NCBI RefSeq assembly: GCF_000484535.1
Contig: NC_022600.1
Span: 3,990,234-4,022,233, forward strand
Length of the DNA: 32,000 nucleotides
Origin: Gloeobacter kilaueensis JS1
GTDB taxonomy: Bacteria; Cyanobacteriota; Cyanobacteriia; Gloeobacterales; Gloeobacteraceae
Reading direction: 5' to 3'
A model generated the notes under the pieces. That model did no database searches, was not told the DNA's origin, and saw only the letters and a list, made by a program, of their open reading frames with translations. A program made the position numbers and the translations under genes. This document shows, one piece after another, positions 3,976-11,065 of the stretch (positions are counted from its first letter, which is position 1; every line of letters begins with the position of its first letter).

Positions 3976-3985
3976 AGTCAGCTAT
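3929..3985 (+). repeat. Direct-repeat copy A: the authentic 3' terminus of the RND pump CDS plus 10 nt downstream
   Basis: It shares a 22-nt perfect block (gcctctacccggtgatctgtgg) and an 18-nt perfect block (gagcctgaagtcagctat) with 7365-7420, in the same order and orientation. Confidence 0.7.
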
Positions 3986-4712
3986 GAATTGTTCCGTCGG
4001 GCAAAATCGTACCTGTTAGCTTCGCTTCTTCGGTGAGATTGCCATCCCATACCGCACCGGTCAAATCCGCTTCTCTTAGATCGGCGTAGCTGAAGTCGCA
4101 GGCAGTGAGGTTGGCTCGGCGCAAATTTGTGCGGTACAAGATAGCGCCCATCAAATCCGATCCACTCAAATCCGCTTCGCTGAGATTGGCTGATTCCAGA
4201 CGACATCCTCGCATATCCGACTGCCGTAACAGCGCCCGGTTGAAATTTGCACCACCGGCCAGTGTCTCCAGCAGACGCGCCCGATCAAGACAGGCTCCCT
4301 GCAAATCTGCTTCTCTTAAATCTGTATTGTCGAGATTTGCTTCGGTCAAATCCGCGCCAACAAGCAGGGCTCCCCGCAGATCGGCAGTGCCAAGATCCAT
4401 AAATCGCAACGAACGGTTCTGTTCTGGCTGGTTCACTATTTCCCAAACCAGATGCCAGCGGGCATCCATGCGCGTGTTTTCGTCGATGAGAACTCCACGG
4501 AGGTTGACAGCACCAAGATACGTCCTGGAAAGGTTGGTTCCGCGTAAATCAGCGCGGTCGATACGGGCACCACCAAGATTCGCATCGCTGAGATCCAGAC
4601 CGCGTAAATCCGGTGAATCCATCGACACATGGACTTGGTGCCAATACCCTTTCAGCCATCGTCCAATAGTGTATGCTTGCAGTAGTTCTTCTACAGTACG
4701 AATTGTTTTCAT
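3978..4712 (-). CDS. Pentapeptide-repeat protein
   Basis: The 244-aa product has long runs of the A(D/N)LXX pentapeptide pattern (ADLRGTNLSRTYLGAVNLRG; ADLTEANLDNTDLREADLQGACLDRARL; ANLSEADLSGSDLMGAILYRTNLRRANLTACDFSYADLREADLTGA). It has an ATG start and lies 23 nt downstream of the protease gene on the same strand. Confidence 0.9.
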   Translation of the reverse strand: MKTIRTVEELLQAYTIGRWLKGYWHQVHVSMDSPDLRGLDLSDANLGGARIDRADLRGTNLSRTYLGAVNLRGVLIDENTRMDARWHLVWEIVNQPEQNRSLRFMDLGTADLRGALLVGADLTEANLDNTDLREADLQGACLDRARLLETLAGGANFNRALLRQSDMRGCRLESANLSEADLSGSDLMGAILYRTNLRRANLTACDFSYADLREADLTGAVWDGNLTEEAKLTGTILPDGTIHS

Positions 4713-4735
4713 GCCAATAAGACTACGTAGGAAAT

Positions 4736-6022
4736 CTACAGTACATCTTTAAATTCAAGAATGATGTTGAGCAGCTTATTCCTCCTTTTTACAATTAGGT
4801 GTACTTTGTTGTTTGGCAGCTGTTGGAGTTTATCTACAATCTCTTTGTGCGTCAATTTTCCATACGGTACTCCATCAATATTTAGGATCTGATCCCCTGA
4901 GCGTATGTCAGCGTGCTCAGCTAATCCTTTTCTTTCAATAGCTGTTACTTTCCCACTAGAAATATCAACGCTCATGCCAACAGCAACATAGTGAAAAGCT
5001 TCACCAAAACGCACACTTTTTCGCAAGGCAATTTGTCTATGTCTTACATCGAATATCACAAAAAAACGAGAGAGTATATCATTACCTATAACGCCAGCCG
5101 TGTCAGTAACTTCCGTTGACTTACTCGATTTCGATATTAATCCTATCAGAGGCTTTATAATCTCAAATTGCCCCAGCTTAAGCGCTGTCGCCCGTACTCT
5201 GTAGAGAACGTCTGTACCTCCAAGACCCTCTGTAGAGTACTTTCTTATGTTGGGGTAGCGCCTGTAAAGGTTGTTTCTTTCGACAAATGGTTGGTACAAC
5301 GTTAATGAGGTTGAAGAGCCAGTATCTATATCGAACCGAGCTGAAATGCCATCAATTTTTCCTTCAATGGCTGGCATTCCTAGCGAACTAACGACAAAGG
5401 GGAAGACGACGTTCTCGCAGTTGGGAGCTACTTTTTGTGAGTTATTGAAGTAAGCCTTCAAATTAATATAATCAAGTTGAATAAGGAAATTTTGAAAGAA
5501 ATCTAATCCGAGAATAGCATCAATTTTTGAAAGTGCTGAAGAGTCAGGCATTACTGCCGAAGGAAGCACACGTAGAATAGTTTTACTCAACTTCAAGTTA
5601 CCAATCTCAAGATTTTCTACTGTTGTTTCTTGAGATGTTTGTACAGGAGAACTTCCATTGCTCCCAATAAACTCAGGACGCATGAGAGAGCGGGTCGGCA
5701 ATCTAAGTTTTTGCGCAACTCTTTCAGATATGAAGTTAATGGTGGCCCCTGAGTCAAGGATAAGATTAAACGGTCCCTGACCATTTATGTACGCATCGAA
5801 TGCAATGAGCCCAGGAGGAGGAGAAGAACGAAAAGGAACAACAATTTCAGACTCAATTTGCTTCGCCTGGTAACTGTCAGCTTTACAAGCCGTAGAGCTA
5901 TAGATTTCTGCAAGTGCAGGAGTCGTCAAAAATGGCAGAATGAAAACCGCTTTTAAAGCAGTCTGTAGAAGAACAGAAGCAGAGCTACTGCTCACAGTTG
6001 CTTTTATCTGTTCGTGCTCCAC
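4736..6022 (-). CDS. Secreted aspartic protease with two retropepsin-like lobes and a C-terminal PDZ domain
   Basis: The 428-aa product has a GTG start and a signal-peptide-like N-terminus (KAVFILPFLTTPALA|E). Two aspartic-protease catalytic motifs lie in separate halves (LILDSGATINFIS near residue 88, FDIDTGSSTSLTL near residue 232). The C-terminus is PDZ-like (RSGDQILNIDGVPYGKLTHKEIVDKLQ). It has low G+C and A/T-ending codons. Confidence 0.8.
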   Translation of the reverse strand: MEHEQIKATVSSSSASVLLQTALKAVFILPFLTTPALAEIYSSTACKADSYQAKQIESEIVVPFRSSPPPGLIAFDAYINGQGPFNLILDSGATINFISERVAQKLRLPTRSLMRPEFIGSNGSSPVQTSQETTVENLEIGNLKLSKTILRVLPSAVMPDSSALSKIDAILGLDFFQNFLIQLDYINLKAYFNNSQKVAPNCENVVFPFVVSSLGMPAIEGKIDGISARFDIDTGSSTSLTLYQPFVERNNLYRRYPNIRKYSTEGLGGTDVLYRVRATALKLGQFEIIKPLIGLISKSSKSTEVTDTAGVIGNDILSRFFVIFDVRHRQIALRKSVRFGEAFHYVAVGMSVDISSGKVTAIERKGLAEHADIRSGDQILNIDGVPYGKLTHKEIVDKLQQLPNNKVHLIVKRRNKLLNIILEFKDVL

Positions 6023-7247
6023 CCCACGAGTTGAAGACTCCGCCAGAAAATTCTGGACTACCGTCTTTATCGACTCCAGCCGAAATACTCACTGTAGTCT
6101 TTCCACCGGGATGACTCTGGCATGTATCGACATTCACATGCGCGCCATCTTTGTTGATTTTAGTTTTAATATCCGTATATCCACCATCCACCTCTGGGTT
6201 GCTTGTACCAGTATTAGCAGGAGTAGTGGGTTTGGAAATAGGGCCACCTAAATCACCGGCTTTAGTGCTGAGCTTGTTTCCAACGCCTGTATCGTTGCCC
6301 GCTAGCAGAGTTGGGGTAGAGCCATTCTGTGTATCTGCCTTCTCTGGTAAACCTGTATAGGTCTCGCTGGAAGCAGTAACAAAGTTGCTTACTCCTGAAG
6401 GCATTCCATCGCAACCTTCAGCTATACCTGCTCTATTGTCAGCCGCAGTAGGATAGCTGACTTCTCCAGTTCTGACTTTGTCCTGATTGACTATTTGCAA
6501 GTTGAAATTCTCAAAGCCGTTGTCTAGGCCATATTCAAAACCGTTACTGTAGTAGCCTTGCTCGCCTGCAGCAACGAGCAGTGCGGGATCAACCGGCAGG
6601 CTCTGCTCGCCTTGAGAAACATTCCACTCGTCCCAACTATTATCCGGCAAGTCAAAGCCTGTATCGTTGCTGTCGTTGTCTACCTGTCCGTAATTGCCGA
6701 TCTCCTGCTCCCGGAGCGAGCCATAGGACTCCTCACCACTTAAGGCAGACTCTCCGTCAGCATCCTCGTACTGGTTGTAGCTGCTGGAAAAACTCGCGAA
6801 TCCTGTGTTTTGTTCTTCATCAAACGGATTAAAGCCGTATGCATCTTGCTGCTGGCTATACCCATAATTGTCAGCACTCTCGAAGTCTGTTTCTGGCTGC
6901 TGGTCAGAGGGGAAGTTGATGTTGTCCCAAATATCGCTATTGGGAAAGCCGAGGGCAGCATTGCCTATGAAAGCGCCCTGCTCACCGTACTGTGTATCTG
7001 TAGAGAAGTCGTAGTCAGTACCGTCACTTTCTAAGTACTGTTGCCCATAGCTGTTGTTGTCATCCACAAGATAGGACTGCTCGCCATCGCCAGCCTCTGT
7101 GTGCCCTTCCTCGTCAGTGCCGTTGCCAGACTCTGAATACTCTTGTTCGTCGCCTTCGCTTGCCGAATACTCTCGCTCGTTTTCGTTCCCGAAGCCATCG
7201 CCGGCAAAATTCTGCTGTTGTTCGCCAAAAAGGTTTTCCTCGTCCAT
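5985..7247 (-). CDS. Hyper-acidic low-complexity protein of unknown function, with no recognisable family
   Basis: The 420-aa ORF has an ATG start preceded by an AGGTG SD-like motif 5 nt upstream. It is the only long ORF in this interval and is co-directional with the protease, which it overlaps by 38 nt. By my count, residues 1-256 contain about 60 D/E but only 2 Arg and no Lys. They are rich in N/Q/G/S with interspersed Y/F/W. No signal peptide is apparent. Confidence 0.65.
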   Translation of the reverse strand: MDEENLFGEQQQNFAGDGFGNENEREYSASEGDEQEYSESGNGTDEEGHTEAGDGEQSYLVDDNNSYGQQYLESDGTDYDFSTDTQYGEQGAFIGNAALGFPNSDIWDNINFPSDQQPETDFESADNYGYSQQQDAYGFNPFDEEQNTGFASFSSSYNQYEDADGESALSGEESYGSLREQEIGNYGQVDNDSNDTGFDLPDNSWDEWNVSQGEQSLPVDPALLVAAGEQGYYSNGFEYGLDNGFENFNLQIVNQDKVRTGEVSYPTAADNRAGIAEGCDGMPSGVSNFVTASSETYTGLPEKADTQNGSTPTLLAGNDTGVGNKLSTKAGDLGGPISKPTTPANTGTSNPEVDGGYTDIKTKINKDGAHVNVDTCQSHPGGKTTVSISAGVDKDGSPEFSGGVFNSWGGARTDKSNCEQ

Positions 7248-7364
7248 GACGCACCTGCAGAAAGGGGTTGCTTCTGTGCAATGTAAGCCATTAATTTGGA
7301 GTCGTCAAGAACTATTCGGGGGAAATACAGTGTCTGGGGCAACCTGCTCAAGTTCGTTTTCGAT

Positions 7365-7420
7365 GCCTCTACCCGGTGATCTGTGGGCAGCGCGAGAAAA
7401 GAGAGCCTGAAGTCAGCTAT
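7365..7420 (+). repeat. Direct-repeat copy B: displaced, out-of-frame duplicate of the RND pump 3' terminus
   Basis: It has the same 22-nt and 18-nt perfect blocks as 3929-3985. They are separated by 16 nt here versus 17 nt in copy A, and that spacer sequence has diverged. No pump coding sequence lies upstream of it. Confidence 0.7.
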
Positions 7421-7553
7421 AGACCTCTTGCATGCATGTCCAGGAGCGGTGTCCGACGATGTGGTGGGCAAAACCTTTGTAAGAGCAAGTCGAGACGATG
7501 AATTTCTCGAACCGAGAAGTTAAACTTCCAAACAGTTGATCGAACAGTATGCG

Positions 7554-8126
7554 ATGATGCTAACTCCGCGAGTTCTCGAACAAGCCCTGGAAATTCTTGG
7601 AGAGTTACTTGCTGAGCGTGGGTCACCCTATGGGCTTGCTGTCATCGGGGGTGGAGGACTGGCTTTATTGGGACTGATAGACCGCGCTACGCGAGACATC
7701 GACGTGGTTGCCCGCGTAGAAGGTGCAGGGTACATCTCGGCTGAGCCCCTGCCGCCTGTGCTCAAAGAAGCGGTTGAGCAAACGGCTCTGCTGCTCGATC
7801 TGGATCGTAGCTGGCTGAATGGAGCCCCAACGGACCTCCTGCGGTTTGGCCTGCCCCAAGGTTTTCGAGAAAGAGCGCTGGTACGCCGATACAGTGCGCT
7901 GACCCTGCAACTTGCTAGTCGCTACGACCAGATTCACTTCAAATTATTCGCAGCGGTGGATCAAGGAGCAAAGAGTAAACACTTCGCGGATCTCAAGCGA
8001 CTACAGCCATCGACGGAGGAGTTGCTGGCAGCCGCTCGCTGGTGTCTGATTCAGGCCGGTGGGATCGAGGGTGATCTGCGTGCGGCTCTAAGCGCACTGG
8101 GGGTACCGGGCGATGTCGAGCTTTAG
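7554..8126 (+). CDS. Minimal nucleotidyltransferase-fold protein (pol-beta superfamily; AbiEii/DUF6036-like)
   Basis: The N-terminal motif hGGGGLALLGLIDRATRDIDVV matches the G-[GS]...D-x-D signature of pol-beta-fold NTases. A downstream helical part (DQIHFKLFAAVDQGAKSKHFADLKRL) resembles the second half of AbiEii-type proteins. The ORF opens at TTG 7536, and the first ATGs are at 7554 and 7557, so the start is uncertain. The 3' end overlaps the next gene by 14 nt. Confidence 0.7.
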   Translation: MMLTPRVLEQALEILGELLAERGSPYGLAVIGGGGLALLGLIDRATRDIDVVARVEGAGYISAEPLPPVLKEAVEQTALLLDLDRSWLNGAPTDLLRFGLPQGFRERALVRRYSALTLQLASRYDQIHFKLFAAVDQGAKSKHFADLKRLQPSTEELLAAARWCLIQAGGIEGDLRAALSALGVPGDVEL

Positions 8127-9081
8127 AGAACAGTTGTCGGAGTACACTTTGCTGCTGCTCTGGAGTTTGTGGACAGAGTTAGGAGTAGCTGGGCTTCATC
8201 GATACCACACCGATTGCCTGGTTGATCCGGAAGCACTGGTCCTGCTCACTGGCTGGCTGGGCCAGTCAGATCCGAGGTTGCAGGAGGAAGTGTTTTCCGA
8301 TTGGTGCCGCCGCTACGGAAATCTCCTGTCACTACAGCGCGTTTATGGCCTGGCAAAATCTTTTGATTATTTAGATCTCAAAGACTCATTTGATTTGATT
8401 GCGCAATCGCTGGATAAGAAACCTCCCAGGCATCTAACTCAGCAGATGCACAGTGGTTCCAGCGGAAAGTCCCGGCTACCATCCTTGACTCAGCCTTCGC
8501 TACTGTTGCTGCGCCTGGCAGCTATTTTTGGGGTTGGCAACCGGACCGTAACGATTGCCGCTTTACTGGCTGAACCGAATGGTCTGAGCGCGTCGGATAT
8601 TGCTTTTATCTGCGGTTATAGCAAGCGCAATGTGGCGAATACGCTGGAAGCGCTGCACCTGGGAGGCTTGCTTCACAAACTAGAAGTCAAAAACAGGCTC
8701 CAATACCATCTGACCAAGTCCAAGCAACTGCTGAGCCTGATTGGTCCACTGCCTGAGAACATGACCGGCTGGCTCTTTGTATTCAGTTTTATAGCGCTCT
8801 GGACCCACTATTCCCAGCAGAACGACGGAGCTTCCACGCTGAGGCGGGCAGTATCTGCCGTGAAATTGATGAAGGGGATGCATTCTGTTCTTACCCTGAT
8901 CGGCTGTTCGCCGCCGATCCTGGAAGGCGAGCCAGAGAAAGATCTGGAGCAAATCGAGGTGTGGGTTCTACGGACAAATGCTGAAATTGCAAAGGGTACC
9001 TCGGTTCTACTGAAACACTCCTTTCTGTTGCCGCCCCTAACTGCGGACTTCTTTATAAGAGACATTCAACCTTCACGGTAA
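8113..9081 (+). CDS. Winged-helix (ArsR/MarR-like wHTH) domain protein of unknown function, partner of the NTase
   Basis: The 322-aa product has an ATG start lying inside the end of the upstream gene. A central wHTH-like segment is present (TVTIAALLAEPNGLSASDIAFICGYSKRNVANTLEALHLGGLLHKLEVKNRLQYHLT). The N-terminal ~130 aa and C-terminal ~110 aa are unrecognised. Confidence 0.6.
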   Translation: MSSFREQLSEYTLLLLWSLWTELGVAGLHRYHTDCLVDPEALVLLTGWLGQSDPRLQEEVFSDWCRRYGNLLSLQRVYGLAKSFDYLDLKDSFDLIAQSLDKKPPRHLTQQMHSGSSGKSRLPSLTQPSLLLLRLAAIFGVGNRTVTIAALLAEPNGLSASDIAFICGYSKRNVANTLEALHLGGLLHKLEVKNRLQYHLTKSKQLLSLIGPLPENMTGWLFVFSFIALWTHYSQQNDGASTLRRAVSAVKLMKGMHSVLTLIGCSPPILEGEPEKDLEQIEVWVLRTNAEIAKGTSVLLKHSFLLPPLTADFFIRDIQPSR

Positions 9082-9207
9082 GAGAGTGTTTGCAAGCCAG
9101 ATTCTAAGCAGACGAAGGCGATTAAACGTCAGCTCCAAGCAGCCCTATGTCCCTTGCAGCAGAAGAAAAATAAGACGAGTCTGCAACTGACTCCACCCAT
9201 CCCGCCT

Positions 9208-9320
9208 GCAGCCCAGTTACAGTGAACCCCCCCTCTTCTCCTCTGCCCGGCGGGGCAGCCCCCCATTCGGGGGGCAGGAGGAGGAGAGCGGGGGGCAGGG
9301 GGGGTGTGGAGGGGTGGGGA
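9208..9320 (+). repeat. GC-rich palindromic intergenic repeat, copy 1
   Basis: It shares the leader gcagcccagttac(a/g)gtgaacccccc with 19771-19862. It also shares polypyrimidine and polypurine arms (ctcttctcctctgccc ... gggcaggaggaggagag) able to form a long hairpin. This copy carries an extra inner hairpin (gcccccc-attc-ggggggc). It lies between convergent gene ends. Confidence 0.75.
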
Positions 9321-9464
9321 CCGTTTTAGCAAGCACCCAAAACCGCAAGCAACACGAGCGCCGAAGCGGATCAAGCTGCTCACACTTCAGCGTCTAATTA
9401 GACAAAGGAGGATGACAGGCAGCTGCTCAGAAGGCTGGCAAAAACATGATGTAAAAACACCCTC

Positions 9465-10253
9465 TCAGCCAGGTTCAAGGGTGATGTCCATCTGATAGAA
9501 CTTGAAGGTATTCTCCTCGCTCGGTTGGTCGCAGGCCACCAGACGATAGCGATCGAGCACGTCGGCTATAAAATCTGGCTTCTCGTGCTCCGGCAGACAC
9601 CATGTCCAGGCAACGAAGGTGACCTGACCGAAGGCGAAGAATGCCTCGCGGGAACCGAAATCCCAGGCTTTGTCCGCCGTGCGCAGGTGCAGGATTTTCA
9701 GGCCGTTTTGCTCGGCTCTGGCTGCATACTGCTCCGGTGTCAGGTGCAGATAAGGATCGCGGAAATCTTGAAAGGAGGTGGACCAGCGGGGCGATTGTCG
9801 CGTCTGCTCAAGCACGTCTTCGAGGCTCGGGCGCTCGCCTTTGGGGACGAGGCGGAGTTGGGCCCGGCCATGGGGACGCAGGGCAGTGTGAATGGAATGT
9901 AAAGCAGCATCCTGCTCGGGTATCCAGTGGAGGGCGTTGAAGGAGACGATGAGATCGAATTCGCTCTTGAAGGGCAGGTGGCGGGCATCGGCCACCTCAA
10001 AGCGCAGCCGGGGCCAGTCGGCGGGGGCAAAGTGTGACGAGGCGAAGCTAATCATCTGCTCGGAGCTATCGATGCCCAAGACCGCTCCTGCAGGAACGCG
10101 CTCAGCGATCTGCGCGGTAATCTTGCCGTTGCCGCAGCCGATATCGAGCACTTGCTCTGTACCGTCGAGTTTCAGCAAAGCCAGCACCTCGTCGGCCATC
10201 GCGCGCTGCAGTGCCGATATCTGGGTGTACTGGGCGGCGTTCCATTCGACCAC
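9465..10253 (-). CDS. Class I SAM-dependent methyltransferase (trans-aconitate methyltransferase/Tam-like)
   Basis: The 262-aa product has a GTG start with AAGGAG 6 nt upstream. The N-terminal W-N-x-x-x-Y segment and SAM motif I (VLDIGCGNGKIT) are followed by GIDSSEQMI and FDLIVSFNALHWIP, as in Tam-type enzymes. Confidence 0.85.
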   Translation of the reverse strand: MVEWNAAQYTQISALQRAMADEVLALLKLDGTEQVLDIGCGNGKITAQIAERVPAGAVLGIDSSEQMISFASSHFAPADWPRLRFEVADARHLPFKSEFDLIVSFNALHWIPEQDAALHSIHTALRPHGRAQLRLVPKGERPSLEDVLEQTRQSPRWSTSFQDFRDPYLHLTPEQYAARAEQNGLKILHLRTADKAWDFGSREAFFAFGQVTFVAWTWCLPEHEKPDFIADVLDRYRLVACDQPSEENTFKFYQMDITLEPG

Positions 10254-10510
10254 AGGCTGCTCCTTTGCCTCAAGAATTGCACACAGGCGGGGCGGCCCGC
10301 TATGGCAGAAGAAGGCTGTGAGGGAGTTACCGACAGCTTTTGAACGAGGCGAAGGACAACCGGCTTATAAAGTGTTCGAGGCATTGCGGGCAGAGCGTGA
10401 CACACCGCGTTGAGGTTGCGTCCTTGGATTCGGCAGCGCTCACCTGAAATAGCACAAGCCCGGTACAACGGCCTTGCACTTGCAATCGAAGCGCTGGAGC
10501 CATTCAGCCC

Positions 10511-11065
10511 TTATGGTAAAAACAGAGCACGAAAGTTATTAATAGTGGCATGATCCATCTTTTCAAAAGGCAGCACCCTGCTGGCTGGAGGCCGGTCCAG
10601 AGGCAGAATATCCATAGCCGATAAGATACCGAAATAGGCATTCATTCTCATGTGCGGCTCTTCTTCAGCGTTCATGACCGTCTCATACAGAGTTTTCGCC
10701 ATCTCGTATCTGAGGTCAGGTTCGATAACATCCGGCAGCACCTCTCCCAGGCCGACCAGTGCAATGCCGCGCACCATCATATCCGGATCGTTGATAGCAA
10801 GTTCCAGACCAGCCCGCGCGTATTCCGCGAATCTAAATCTTGTCAGAAGCGCTCCGACCGCATTCCACCGCACCATAACATCGGTTGAATCGAGCGTAGT
10901 GGCGATTACAGGCGCAGTGGAAAACGCGGCGCAATCGGTTGCTACGGTTATGGCTGTAAAGGGATCGGGGCCAGCGATGAGCAACTTTAGAAATGCTGTA
11001 GAAGCACGAGAGATCCGGCCATTTCGCTCATATTCGTCGTATATGTCCTCGAAGTTCATGTGCAT
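10511..11065 (-). CDS. HEAT/PBS-lyase-like repeat protein of unknown function
   Basis: The 184-aa product has three degenerate D-x-x-x-(V/M)R-x-x-A-x-x-x-L-type repeats (STDVMVRWNAVGALL; NDPDMMVRGIALVGLG; EEEPHMRMNAYFGILS). Its G+C is lower than that of the neighbouring pur genes. Confidence 0.6.
   Translation of the reverse strand: MHMNFEDIYDEYERNGRISRASTAFLKLLIAGPDPFTAITVATDCAAFSTAPVIATTLDSTDVMVRWNAVGALLTRFRFAEYARAGLELAINDPDMMVRGIALVGLGEVLPDVIEPDLRYEMAKTLYETVMNAEEEPHMRMNAYFGILSAMDILPLDRPPASRVLPFEKMDHATINNFRALFLP

Follow-up and report, generated by a model that had tools for sequence, protein, structure and literature searches.

An acidic, predicted disordered protein of Gloeobacter kilaueensis belongs to a multicopy family with exchangeable C termini and module-specific gene partners

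In the genome of the cyanobacterium Gloeobacter kilaueensis JS1 (4,724,791 bp; 60.5% GC), we examined a 32,000-nucleotide stretch (NC_022600.1, positions 3,990,234 to 4,022,233; hereafter the window, to which unprefixed coordinates refer) and, within it, an open reading frame (ORF) at positions 5985 to 7247 on the minus strand. Its product, here termed the 420-amino-acid (aa) acidic protein, joins a long acidic N-terminal tract to a C terminus of different composition, and its gene is followed by one for an aspartic protease. The plus-strand translation of the same interval is broken by many stops. Comparison with the rest of the genome places the gene in a lineage-restricted, multicopy family. 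With slightly better than even confidence, we read this family as one that resembles polymorphic toxins or effectors and carries a new, disordered acidic delivery region.

A first-pass annotation, made from the sequence alone, had counted 60 Asp/Glu, 2 Arg, and no Lys among residues 1 to 256, and a recount returned exactly these numbers, together with 36 Tyr/Phe/Trp and no Cys. The change of composition that it placed at residue 257 is borne out, as residues 257 to 420 have every Cys of the protein (C279, C376, and C418) and 14 of its 16 basic residues. We delimited the acidic, aromatic, K/R-poor tract, which starts M-D-E-E, as residues 1 to 258 (6474 to 7247, minus strand; 23% D/E, 1.2% K/R, 14% Y/F/W, and 40% N/Q/G/S); the net charge across residues 1 to 224 is about −53. 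The aromatic residues had been described as regularly interspersed, which is weakly true at best: the coefficient of variation of their spacing is 0.74, against 0.89 ± 0.14 in shuffled sequences, and the difference is not significant (P = 0.12). Adjacent aromatic pairs are depleted (1 versus ∼5 expected; P = 0.026), and the aromatics are flanked by Gly (2.1×) and Ser (1.7×). The highest 19-residue Kyte-Doolittle mean in the protein is 0.52, in agreement with the proposed lack of a transmembrane segment or signal peptide. Tandem Repeats Finder likewise gave 0 rows at a score of ≥30, as expected from the earlier reading that no nucleotide tandem repeat is present, and internal repetition of the protein is near nil (one 8-mer pair with 6/8 identical residues), so the low complexity is compositional.

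Intrinsic disorder, also proposed earlier, is very likely over about 85% of the protein's length. Two AlphaFold2 runs, one on a three-paralog alignment and one with four sequences for the last 204 residues, are in agreement (mean predicted local distance difference test [pLDDT] scores of 31.5 and 39.1), with values below 50 throughout residues 1 to 355 and of 24 to 41 in the acidic tract. Residues 259 to 355 (6183 to 6473, minus strand) form a G/T/S/P/K-rich linker that is predicted to be disordered and has motifs in common with its paralogs (GMPxGV, D/TPTLL, LGGPI/V, and NPE). Beyond it, AlphaFold2 and the paralog alignment point to a candidate small beta module at residues 356 to 420 (5988 to 6182, minus strand), bracketed by C376 and C418. 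A tentative four-strand beta-meander appears here in both predictions at a pLDDT of 51 to 64, and these strands are weak evidence for a small module. Both bracketing cysteines and a GG-x-T motif are invariant across four paralogs (C279 is not conserved), within a core of C-x-S/Q-x-x-G-G-x-T-S/T and a tail of N-C-E-Q. The earlier suggestion of a folded or disulfide-stabilized C-terminal module thus stands in part, as a possible small Cys-bracketed unit; the 100 to 164 aa that it allotted to this unit shrink to about 65. Neither Pfam nor NCBIfam, even at E ≤ 1, matched the whole protein or its C terminus, nor did a PDB sequence search with a C-terminal profile. The protein thus matches no known family.

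Upstream of the start codon lie a conserved 5′ leader (7248 to 7279, minus strand; AACCCCTTTCTGCAGGTGCGTC, delimited by an alignment of five loci), with an AGGTG Shine-Dalgarno-like element, and a conserved promoter block (7280 to 7326, minus strand) that consists of a ATTTCCCCCGAATAGTTC element, a −35 hexamer TTGACG, a 17-nucleotide (nt) spacer, and a −10 hexamer TACATT. The family consensus of this region runs ATTTCCCC(C)..., TTGACx, 17-nt spacer, TAnnTT, leader AACCCTTTCnGCAGGTG, and ATG GAY GAR GAR, and a consensus promoter scan picked the same hexamers (7308→7280). The genome has four exact copies of a 23-mer from the block, all of them about 57 nt ahead of a family ATG, and the reversed control has none. 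An nhmmer profile of positions −95 to +30 found seven loci at E ≤ 6.5e-15, two of them outside the training set; among the weaker matches, 4/8 fall on the start codons of other acidic-tract ORFs. The loci are similar in DNA from a sharp boundary at about −85 relative to the ATG until some 15 nt into the gene, where the similarity fades; the flanks are unrelated. Within the promoter/leader block, identity between loci is 74 to 90% despite saturated synonymous sites in the genes, which argues that strong constraint or gene conversion acts on the regulation and the first codons. An exact scan for the promoter block found it in none of 185,579 species genomes and nowhere in the JGI metagenomes, and an Rfam search with the conserved leader matched no family.

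The protease gene downstream (4736 to 6022, minus strand) encodes a pseudodimeric retropepsin-like aspartic protease with a C-terminal PDZ domain. Pfam assigned two copies of Asp_protease_2 (PF13650; E = 1.6e-20; 74 bits against a cutoff of 24.3) and PDZ_6 (32.8 bits against a cutoff of 27), the PDZ model being matched as well, and NCBIfam added a weak similarity of the PDZ domain to Prc/CtpA. The catalytic motifs DSG and DTG are kept in all protease paralogs, which lie directly downstream of Cys-module genes or their remnants. The protease beside the 420-aa acidic gene is 419 to 428 aa long: read as the longest ORF, it would begin at 6022, but the probable start is a GTG at 5995, giving 419 aa. 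This GTG sits within the final Cys-Glu codons of the acidic gene, 8 nt before its stop codon, and the same geometry recurs at another copy in the genome, locus 4, where the protease is also 419 aa long. The overlap implies that translation of the acidic gene and that of the protease would be coupled, and because the protease start lies inside the acidic tail, conservation of the N-C-E tail may partly serve that start. By eye, the hydrophobic stretch at the protease N terminus ends in ...PALA, followed by E, which suggests a signal peptide and hence a putatively exported enzyme. The protease of the 420-aa acidic gene and that of locus 4 are 51% identical, with a ratio of nonsynonymous to synonymous substitution rates (dN/dS) of 0.18; this was the only computable pair.

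Paralogs of the 420-aa acidic protein were found by single-sequence searches of the genome (E = 5.7e-7 and 4.2e-6), and a paralog match was still found at 8.3e-5 among 1.8 billion representatives in a full phmmer search. Every search beyond the genome came back empty, with no matches but the protein itself and its in-genome paralogs: word-seeded phmmer against 5.8 billion proteins, full phmmer against the 1.8 billion cluster representatives, a four-paralog profile, six-frame searches of 40 relatives and, within the phylum, of 400 genomes, and scans with back-translated patterns of 185,579 species genomes and of the JGI metagenomes. In all, about 15 billion proteins gave no homolog. The acidic paralogs are 27 to 34% identical to each other, and their proteases are 30 to 51% identical. 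Synonymous sites are saturated in all acidic-paralog pairs, which left dN/dS of the acidic genes not computable; ORFs of 355 to 420 codons are nevertheless still open, and the many indels among them are all in frame. The possibility that the ORF is spurious and embedded in foreign DNA therefore fails: the paralogs keep long ORFs, protein similarity, promoter, and gene partner in the face of saturated synonymous divergence, and on this sequence evidence the 420-aa ORF is a genuine gene.

A six-frame composition scan and a start-motif scan of the genome recovered the members of the family. Ten proteins carry tracts of 188 to 481 aa with 21 to 27% D/E, 0.4 to 3.2% K/R, 7 to 15% Y/F/W, and 27 to 41% N/Q/G/S. 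The products of nine intact ORFs begin M[DN]E[EQA], and their first 100 residues include no fewer than 27 D/E and no more than one K/R. The 420-aa acidic protein had seemed very unusual when viewed in isolation, but at least 10 proteins of the genome, itself included, are built in this way. The acidic-tract profile (A6) is circular for its own members; the noncircular evidence of homology consists of the single-sequence matches and the promoter/start DNA.

Behind the common front end, the C termini fall into four distinct types, and the downstream gene co-varies with the type. A disordered linker followed by a two-Cys module is found in the 420-aa acidic protein, L013, L002, the locus-4 remnant, and a 158-aa variant at locus 7, and the putatively exported double-retropepsin/PDZ protease follows in 4/4 genes or remnants, with none adjoining the locus-7 variant. 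Glycine-zipper type 1 (L026, L027 [= L003], and L031) is followed in 3/3 cases by small polytopic membrane ORFs ending ...LWPLYRR, which are homologous to each other at E = 1e-14 to 1e-6, and glycine-zipper type 2 (L025 and L032) is followed in 2/2 cases by pentapeptide-repeat genes of 48 to 58% identity. In L023 and L024, the tract precedes RTX repeats and a Peptidase_M91 "Effector protein" domain (Pfam E = 8.5e-50 and 3.4e-50), and the partners in G. kilaueensis are mutually similar ORFs (E = 4e-5), the one at L024 starting like a lipoprotein. The M91 type also occurs in G004, the genome of another genus of the same taxonomic family, where one ortholog has the tract design, with an acidic, aromatic, K/R-free N terminus and a lipoprotein-like gene downstream. 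All four M91 genes (two in G. kilaueensis and two in G004) have a gene immediately downstream, and three of these four downstream genes, read by eye, begin with a signal- or lipoprotein-like stretch. Homology of these downstream genes was scored for the G. kilaueensis pair only, the G004 pair being judged by eye.

The locus-7 variant (C1:42588-43064, minus strand, in L033) is a 158-aa ORF behind the family promoter that starts MDKEF and has no acidic tract; it carries a hydrophobic stretch and the same two-Cys C-terminal module, ending ...GECPQ.

A second acidic subfamily (L021, L028, L029, and L030) has starts of MPDEE, MPED, or MEDEY, P/S/E-rich tracts, large C termini, and lengths of 413 to 1,227 aa. 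It had no Pfam hits, and a PDB search with three large sister proteins gave no match. Small low-GC ORFs, some duplicated, lie downstream of its genes. One member is split (134 + 755 aa) beside insertion sequence-like fragments, and a truncated duplicate of the L021 N terminus lies at C1:1457178-1457819. The composition scan also picked out a separate set of proteins in which strongly acidic, aromatic-containing stretches form C-terminal tails rather than N-terminal tracts (ORF starts on C1 at 3091181, 3476719, 3783579, 3880637, 3975347, 724036, and 527304).

Two loci of the two-Cys type show decay of the acidic gene beside an intact protease. The L002 paralog has an in-frame TAG at codon 23 and is otherwise open for about 360 codons. 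This TAG (L002:2512-2514; C1:3936498-3936500, minus strand) could mark a pseudogene, a sequencing error, or read-through. The locus-4 remnant (C1:39852-40052, minus strand, in L033) retains the promoter, 32 N-terminal codons, and a ...GQNNCEK tail; it has a large internal deletion and TAG, TAG, and TGA stops, and the intact 419-aa protease follows. Decay of one gene with retention of its partner is, by analogy, a pattern typical of toxin loss.

The acidic gene and its protease lie in a low-GC island (GC of 0.42 to 0.57 over positions ∼4000 to 11000, versus ∼0.64 around it). GC at third codon positions (GC3) is 0.50 in the acidic gene and 0.36 in the protease, against 0.73 to 0.83 in native neighbors. 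Across the genome, the family cassettes are discrete low-GC units, each about 2.6 kb long and set between unrelated flanks. GC3 is native in the M91 members (0.78 to 0.80), whereas the other cassettes lie between 0.43 and 0.58. The cassettes keep a GC3 of 0.36 to 0.58, against a genome value of ∼0.75 to 0.8, although the paralogs are saturated synonymously, which suggests that they either have been resident for a long time without ameliorating or were imported repeatedly from a low-GC donor that is not seen. An empty-site comparison of the island was uninformative, as purF in the sister genomes is not adjoined by a syntenic ortholog of the flanking RND gene.

The last gene of the minus-strand trio (3978 to 4712, minus strand) encodes a 244-aa pentapeptide-repeat protein (Pfam Pentapeptide, E = 1.8e-39) that is 36 to 43% identical (E = 1e-42 to 1e-46) to the products of the genes downstream of L032 and L025. 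All of these proteins have the nonrepeat signature LIDExTxxDxKWRxVWEIVN in common, and the 244-aa gene may be an orphan partner that makes the locus a composite island. Elsewhere in the island, two overlapping plus-strand genes (7536 to 8126 and 8113 to 9081) encode products of 196 and 322 aa. The former has a match to AbiEii/DUF6036 nucleotidyltransferases that is borderline (E = 1e-4; 22.8 bits, with the cutoff at 22.5), the latter has weak MarR/HTH hits, and the two could be an AbiE-like toxin-antitoxin or defense pair. A 184-aa ORF with weak HEAT-repeat hits (10511 to 11065, minus strand; GC of 0.51) lies at the far edge of the island, next to purF.

The combination of a shared front end, an exchangeable rear end, a payload-specific neighbor, and an effector peptidase argues for a delivery or effector role of the family rather than a structural one. 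From it we infer that disorder is itself functional, that the proteins are exported and toxic, and that the protease has a part in the system. The disordered acidic tract would be the common handling part, that is, an export, loading, or translocation region, and the C terminus would be the working part. In the 420-aa acidic protein, the payload would comprise the disordered linker and the ∼65-aa two-Cys beta module. The acidic protein is most likely the target of the coupled, putatively exported protease/PDZ protein, and the two would meet outside the cytoplasm, where the protease may destroy incoming or stray acidic copies as a form of proteolytic immunity or may instead release the C-terminal Cys module by processing, the main rival. 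We slightly favor the protective role, since the protease has remained intact at loci with a dead acidic gene, in the manner of orphan immunity genes.

Several observations weigh against a toxin- or effector-like family. The C-terminal payload of the 420-aa acidic protein matches nothing and is barely predicted to fold, and a recognizable toxin domain is found only in its sisters L023 and L024 (Peptidase_M91). The glycine-zipper, colicin-pore, and microcin V Pfam hits of sister members are all subthreshold (glycine-zipper and colicin-pore, E = 0.03 to 0.3); the Colicin pore hits reach E = 0.04 to 0.12 and 12.7 to 14.2 bits against a cutoff of 23.4, with none in the 420-aa acidic protein. Pfam and NCBIfam searches revealed neither a secretion signal nor a known trafficking domain in any of the members, and homology of low-complexity tracts is hard to tell from shared composition. 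The partner is a large, active-looking enzyme, whereas immunity proteins are typically small and nonenzymatic (PMC3482391), and aspartyl proteases go unmentioned in the inventory of polymorphic toxin systems (PMC3482391). Its nearest homologs elsewhere are at most 29% identical and adjoin genes for VWA-domain proteins rather than acidic ORFs, so the partnership of acidic gene and protease is local to the G. kilaueensis genome.

Other observations speak against a simple link to the contractile injection system (CIS) genes of this genome. These lie at three separate loci, with Pvc16_N, the sheath, and two tube genes at C1:3515049-3519258, gp25 and Baseplate_J at 2899479-2901707, and a VgrG-like spike at 2816626-2817405. 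No family member adjoins them, no acidic-tract ORF occurs within the CIS loci, and the region of the 420-aa acidic gene is about 480 kb from the sheath gene. Among genomes of the taxonomic family, Pvc16_N is present in 6/7, and the acidic-tract profile hits only G. kilaueensis and G004, with the proviso that disordered tracts are hard to profile. On these grounds, we leave the delivery route open. It is unlikely, to our minds, that the tract represents a new class of delivery domain, either a Gloeobacterales CIS loading signal or a porin-threading arm, with the protease a new kind of immunity that degrades the toxin in the periplasm via its C-terminal tail rather than binding it.

Among alternatives to the toxin- or effector-like reading, the acidic protein may be a precursor and the protease its maturase. 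The exported protease would dock through its PDZ domain on the C-terminal tail and cut out a disulfide peptide of ∼45 to 65 aa as the active product, bacteriocin-like or signaling, with the acidic region as leader or solubility tag; we find this rather unlikely. The translational coupling suggested by the GTG 8 nt before the acidic stop, the pairing in 4/4 loci, the intact DSG/DTG motifs in all protease paralogs, and the two invariant Cys around a conserved G/S/T-rich core would all be expected of such a pair. So would the weak PDZ similarity to Prc/CtpA, as PDZ proteases commonly read C termini. Releasing peptidases are, moreover, standard in polymorphic toxins (PMC3482391). The protease is nevertheless intact in two loci whose substrate gene is dead, and other family members with the same front end have no protease. 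A leader of ∼355 aa would be several times longer than known leaders, the cassette includes neither a modifying enzyme nor a dedicated exporter, and with a putative signal peptide on the protease and none on the acidic protein, the two could meet only by an unknown export route. The adjacency could also mean that the protease is the real effector and that the acidic protein is its trans-acting propeptide, chaperone, or inhibitor, holding it inactive through the tail and the PDZ domain. We give this a slim chance. It would account for the strict adjacency and coupling, the conserved C-terminal tail, and the paired divergence of the two genes (27 to 34% identity among acidic paralogs and 30 to 51% among proteases). 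In two loci and in G005, however, proteases survive without the partner, and proteins that lack a protease have the acidic front end as well. Acidic protein and protease are also predicted to occupy separate compartments, and the tail DNA may be conserved simply because the protease start codon overlaps it.

An outside chance is all we allow the idea, close to that of the first-pass annotation, that the protein is a polyanionic, disordered cation- or mineral-binding, matrix-forming, or condensate-forming protein, anchored by its C-terminal module and turned over by the protease. The extreme acidity (with the net charge given above), the spaced aromatics flanked by Gly and Ser, the predicted disorder, and the Ca-binding RTX repeats of some family members suit such a role, as does the origin of strain JS1 in an epilithic, mineral-surface biofilm of a lava cave (PMC3806779). 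Against it, the aromatic spacing is not significantly regular, an extracellular matrix role would call for a signal peptide, which the protein lacks, family copies decay, and three sister species of similar habitats lack the family; nor does a structural role explain why the tract is also fused to effector peptidase and glycine-zipper modules with partners of their own. That the ORF is nonfunctional, or a decaying pseudogene in horizontally acquired DNA, is scarcely credible. Its low GC, the lack of a homolog outside the genome, and the two visibly decayed sister copies would fit, but 420 codons are open in 50% GC DNA behind an intact promoter, Shine-Dalgarno element, and start codon, in a layout identical to that of six other loci. 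Protein similarity is also kept despite saturated synonymous sites, and the inter-paralog indels are all in frame.

Of described systems, polymorphic toxins such as CdiA-CT/CdiI, Rhs, and LXG toxins (PMC3482391) are like the family in having a conserved N terminus with exchangeable C-terminal modules, a module-specific adjacent partner, decayed toxin genes beside kept partners, and dispersed low-GC cassettes, and one of the family's modules is a recognized effector peptidase (M91). Unlike in those systems, the N terminus, as a polyanionic disordered tract, shows neither a signal peptide nor a known trafficking domain, a promoter and leader are common to the family loci, and the neighbor of the two-Cys subtype is a ∼420-aa putatively exported aspartic protease/PDZ protein rather than a small binder. 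Polymorphic toxin systems are reported to be relatively rare in cyanobacteria (PMC3482391). Glycine-zipper toxins that depolarize membranes and are countered by membrane immunity proteins are known from Staphylococcus aureus (EsxX/ExiCD; PMC12744356) and Streptococcus gallolyticus (TelE/TipE; PMC10434224), and orphan immunity genes are known for such toxins as well (PMC12744356, PMC10434224; compare ExiCD). The sister members that end in glycine-zipper segments, followed by small polytopic membrane ORFs, recall these toxins, as do the orphan partners. EsxX and TelE differ from the family, however, in using an N-terminal LXG domain and a type VII system, and the 420-aa acidic protein itself has no glycine zipper.

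The nearest documented parallel to the tract as a shared handling region is the cargo of extracellular CIS (eCIS), in which a "system-specific disordered NTD" (N-terminal domain) is described as the loading sequence and is joined to a C-terminal effector domain that varies (preprint 10.64898/2026.05.27.728243). Such cargo (AlgoCIS Cgo1/Cgo2, PVC Pdp1/Pnf, and MAC Mif1/Pne1) thus resembles the family in its disordered N terminus and variable C-terminal domain, and G. kilaueensis does encode the CIS components named above. The family genes, in contrast, lie away from CIS clusters and have no DUF4157, their tracts are much longer and more acidic than the eCIS loading sequences verifiable here, and the other CIS-bearing genomes of the taxonomic family are without detectable acidic-tract proteins. 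The overall layout is also similar to that of colicins and S-pyocins, which have a disordered N-terminal translocation region, a C-terminal killing domain, a downstream immunity gene, and a shared regulated promoter. Colicin N termini are Gly/Ser/Asn-rich with Tol or Ton boxes, whereas the family tract is polyanionic; neither a receptor-binding coiled coil nor a lysis gene was seen, and no colicin-domain match was significant.

As for the protease, PDZ-bearing periplasmic proteases such as Prc/Tsp, CtpA, and DegS commonly read the C termini of their substrates. The partner is like them in having a PDZ domain C-terminal to the catalytic domains and a putative export signal, and the acidic paralogs keep an N-C-E/Q-x tail. 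Unlike these serine proteases, it is an aspartic enzyme with two retropepsin-like lobes in one chain, and its match to PF13650 aligns it with the bacterial retropepsin-like proteases. We know of no member of the double-retropepsin/PDZ architecture with a known substrate.

Other identities were considered and set aside. As a type I secretion substrate of the RTX kind, the 420-aa acidic protein would be expected to match HemolysinCabind, and it did not; L023 and L024 do have repeats, and their M91 domain lies C-terminal to these, the wrong domain order for that route. A DNA-mimic antirestriction protein found no support, and the 420-aa acidic protein is not predicted to fold. A likeness to calcyanin, a glycine-zipper biomineralization protein, was dropped, given the lack of a glycine zipper in the 420-aa acidic protein.

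Gloeobacter is the deepest-branching lineage of oxygenic phototrophs, and to our knowledge no comparable system has been described for it. If the toxin- or effector-like reading is true, a single biofilm cyanobacterium would maintain at least 10 effector genes under a common promoter, marked by a front end of a new kind, the long polyanionic disordered tract. The family would then offer a testable candidate for signal-less effector recognition, possibly by CIS, whose cargo-loading rules remain open. The acidic protein would be the first candidate substrate for the widespread, uncharacterized double-retropepsin/PDZ proteases, and the pair would be a possible case of enzymatic rather than stoichiometric immunity. 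The locus also illustrates that an ORFan protein of low complexity can gain context purely through paralogy within its own genome.

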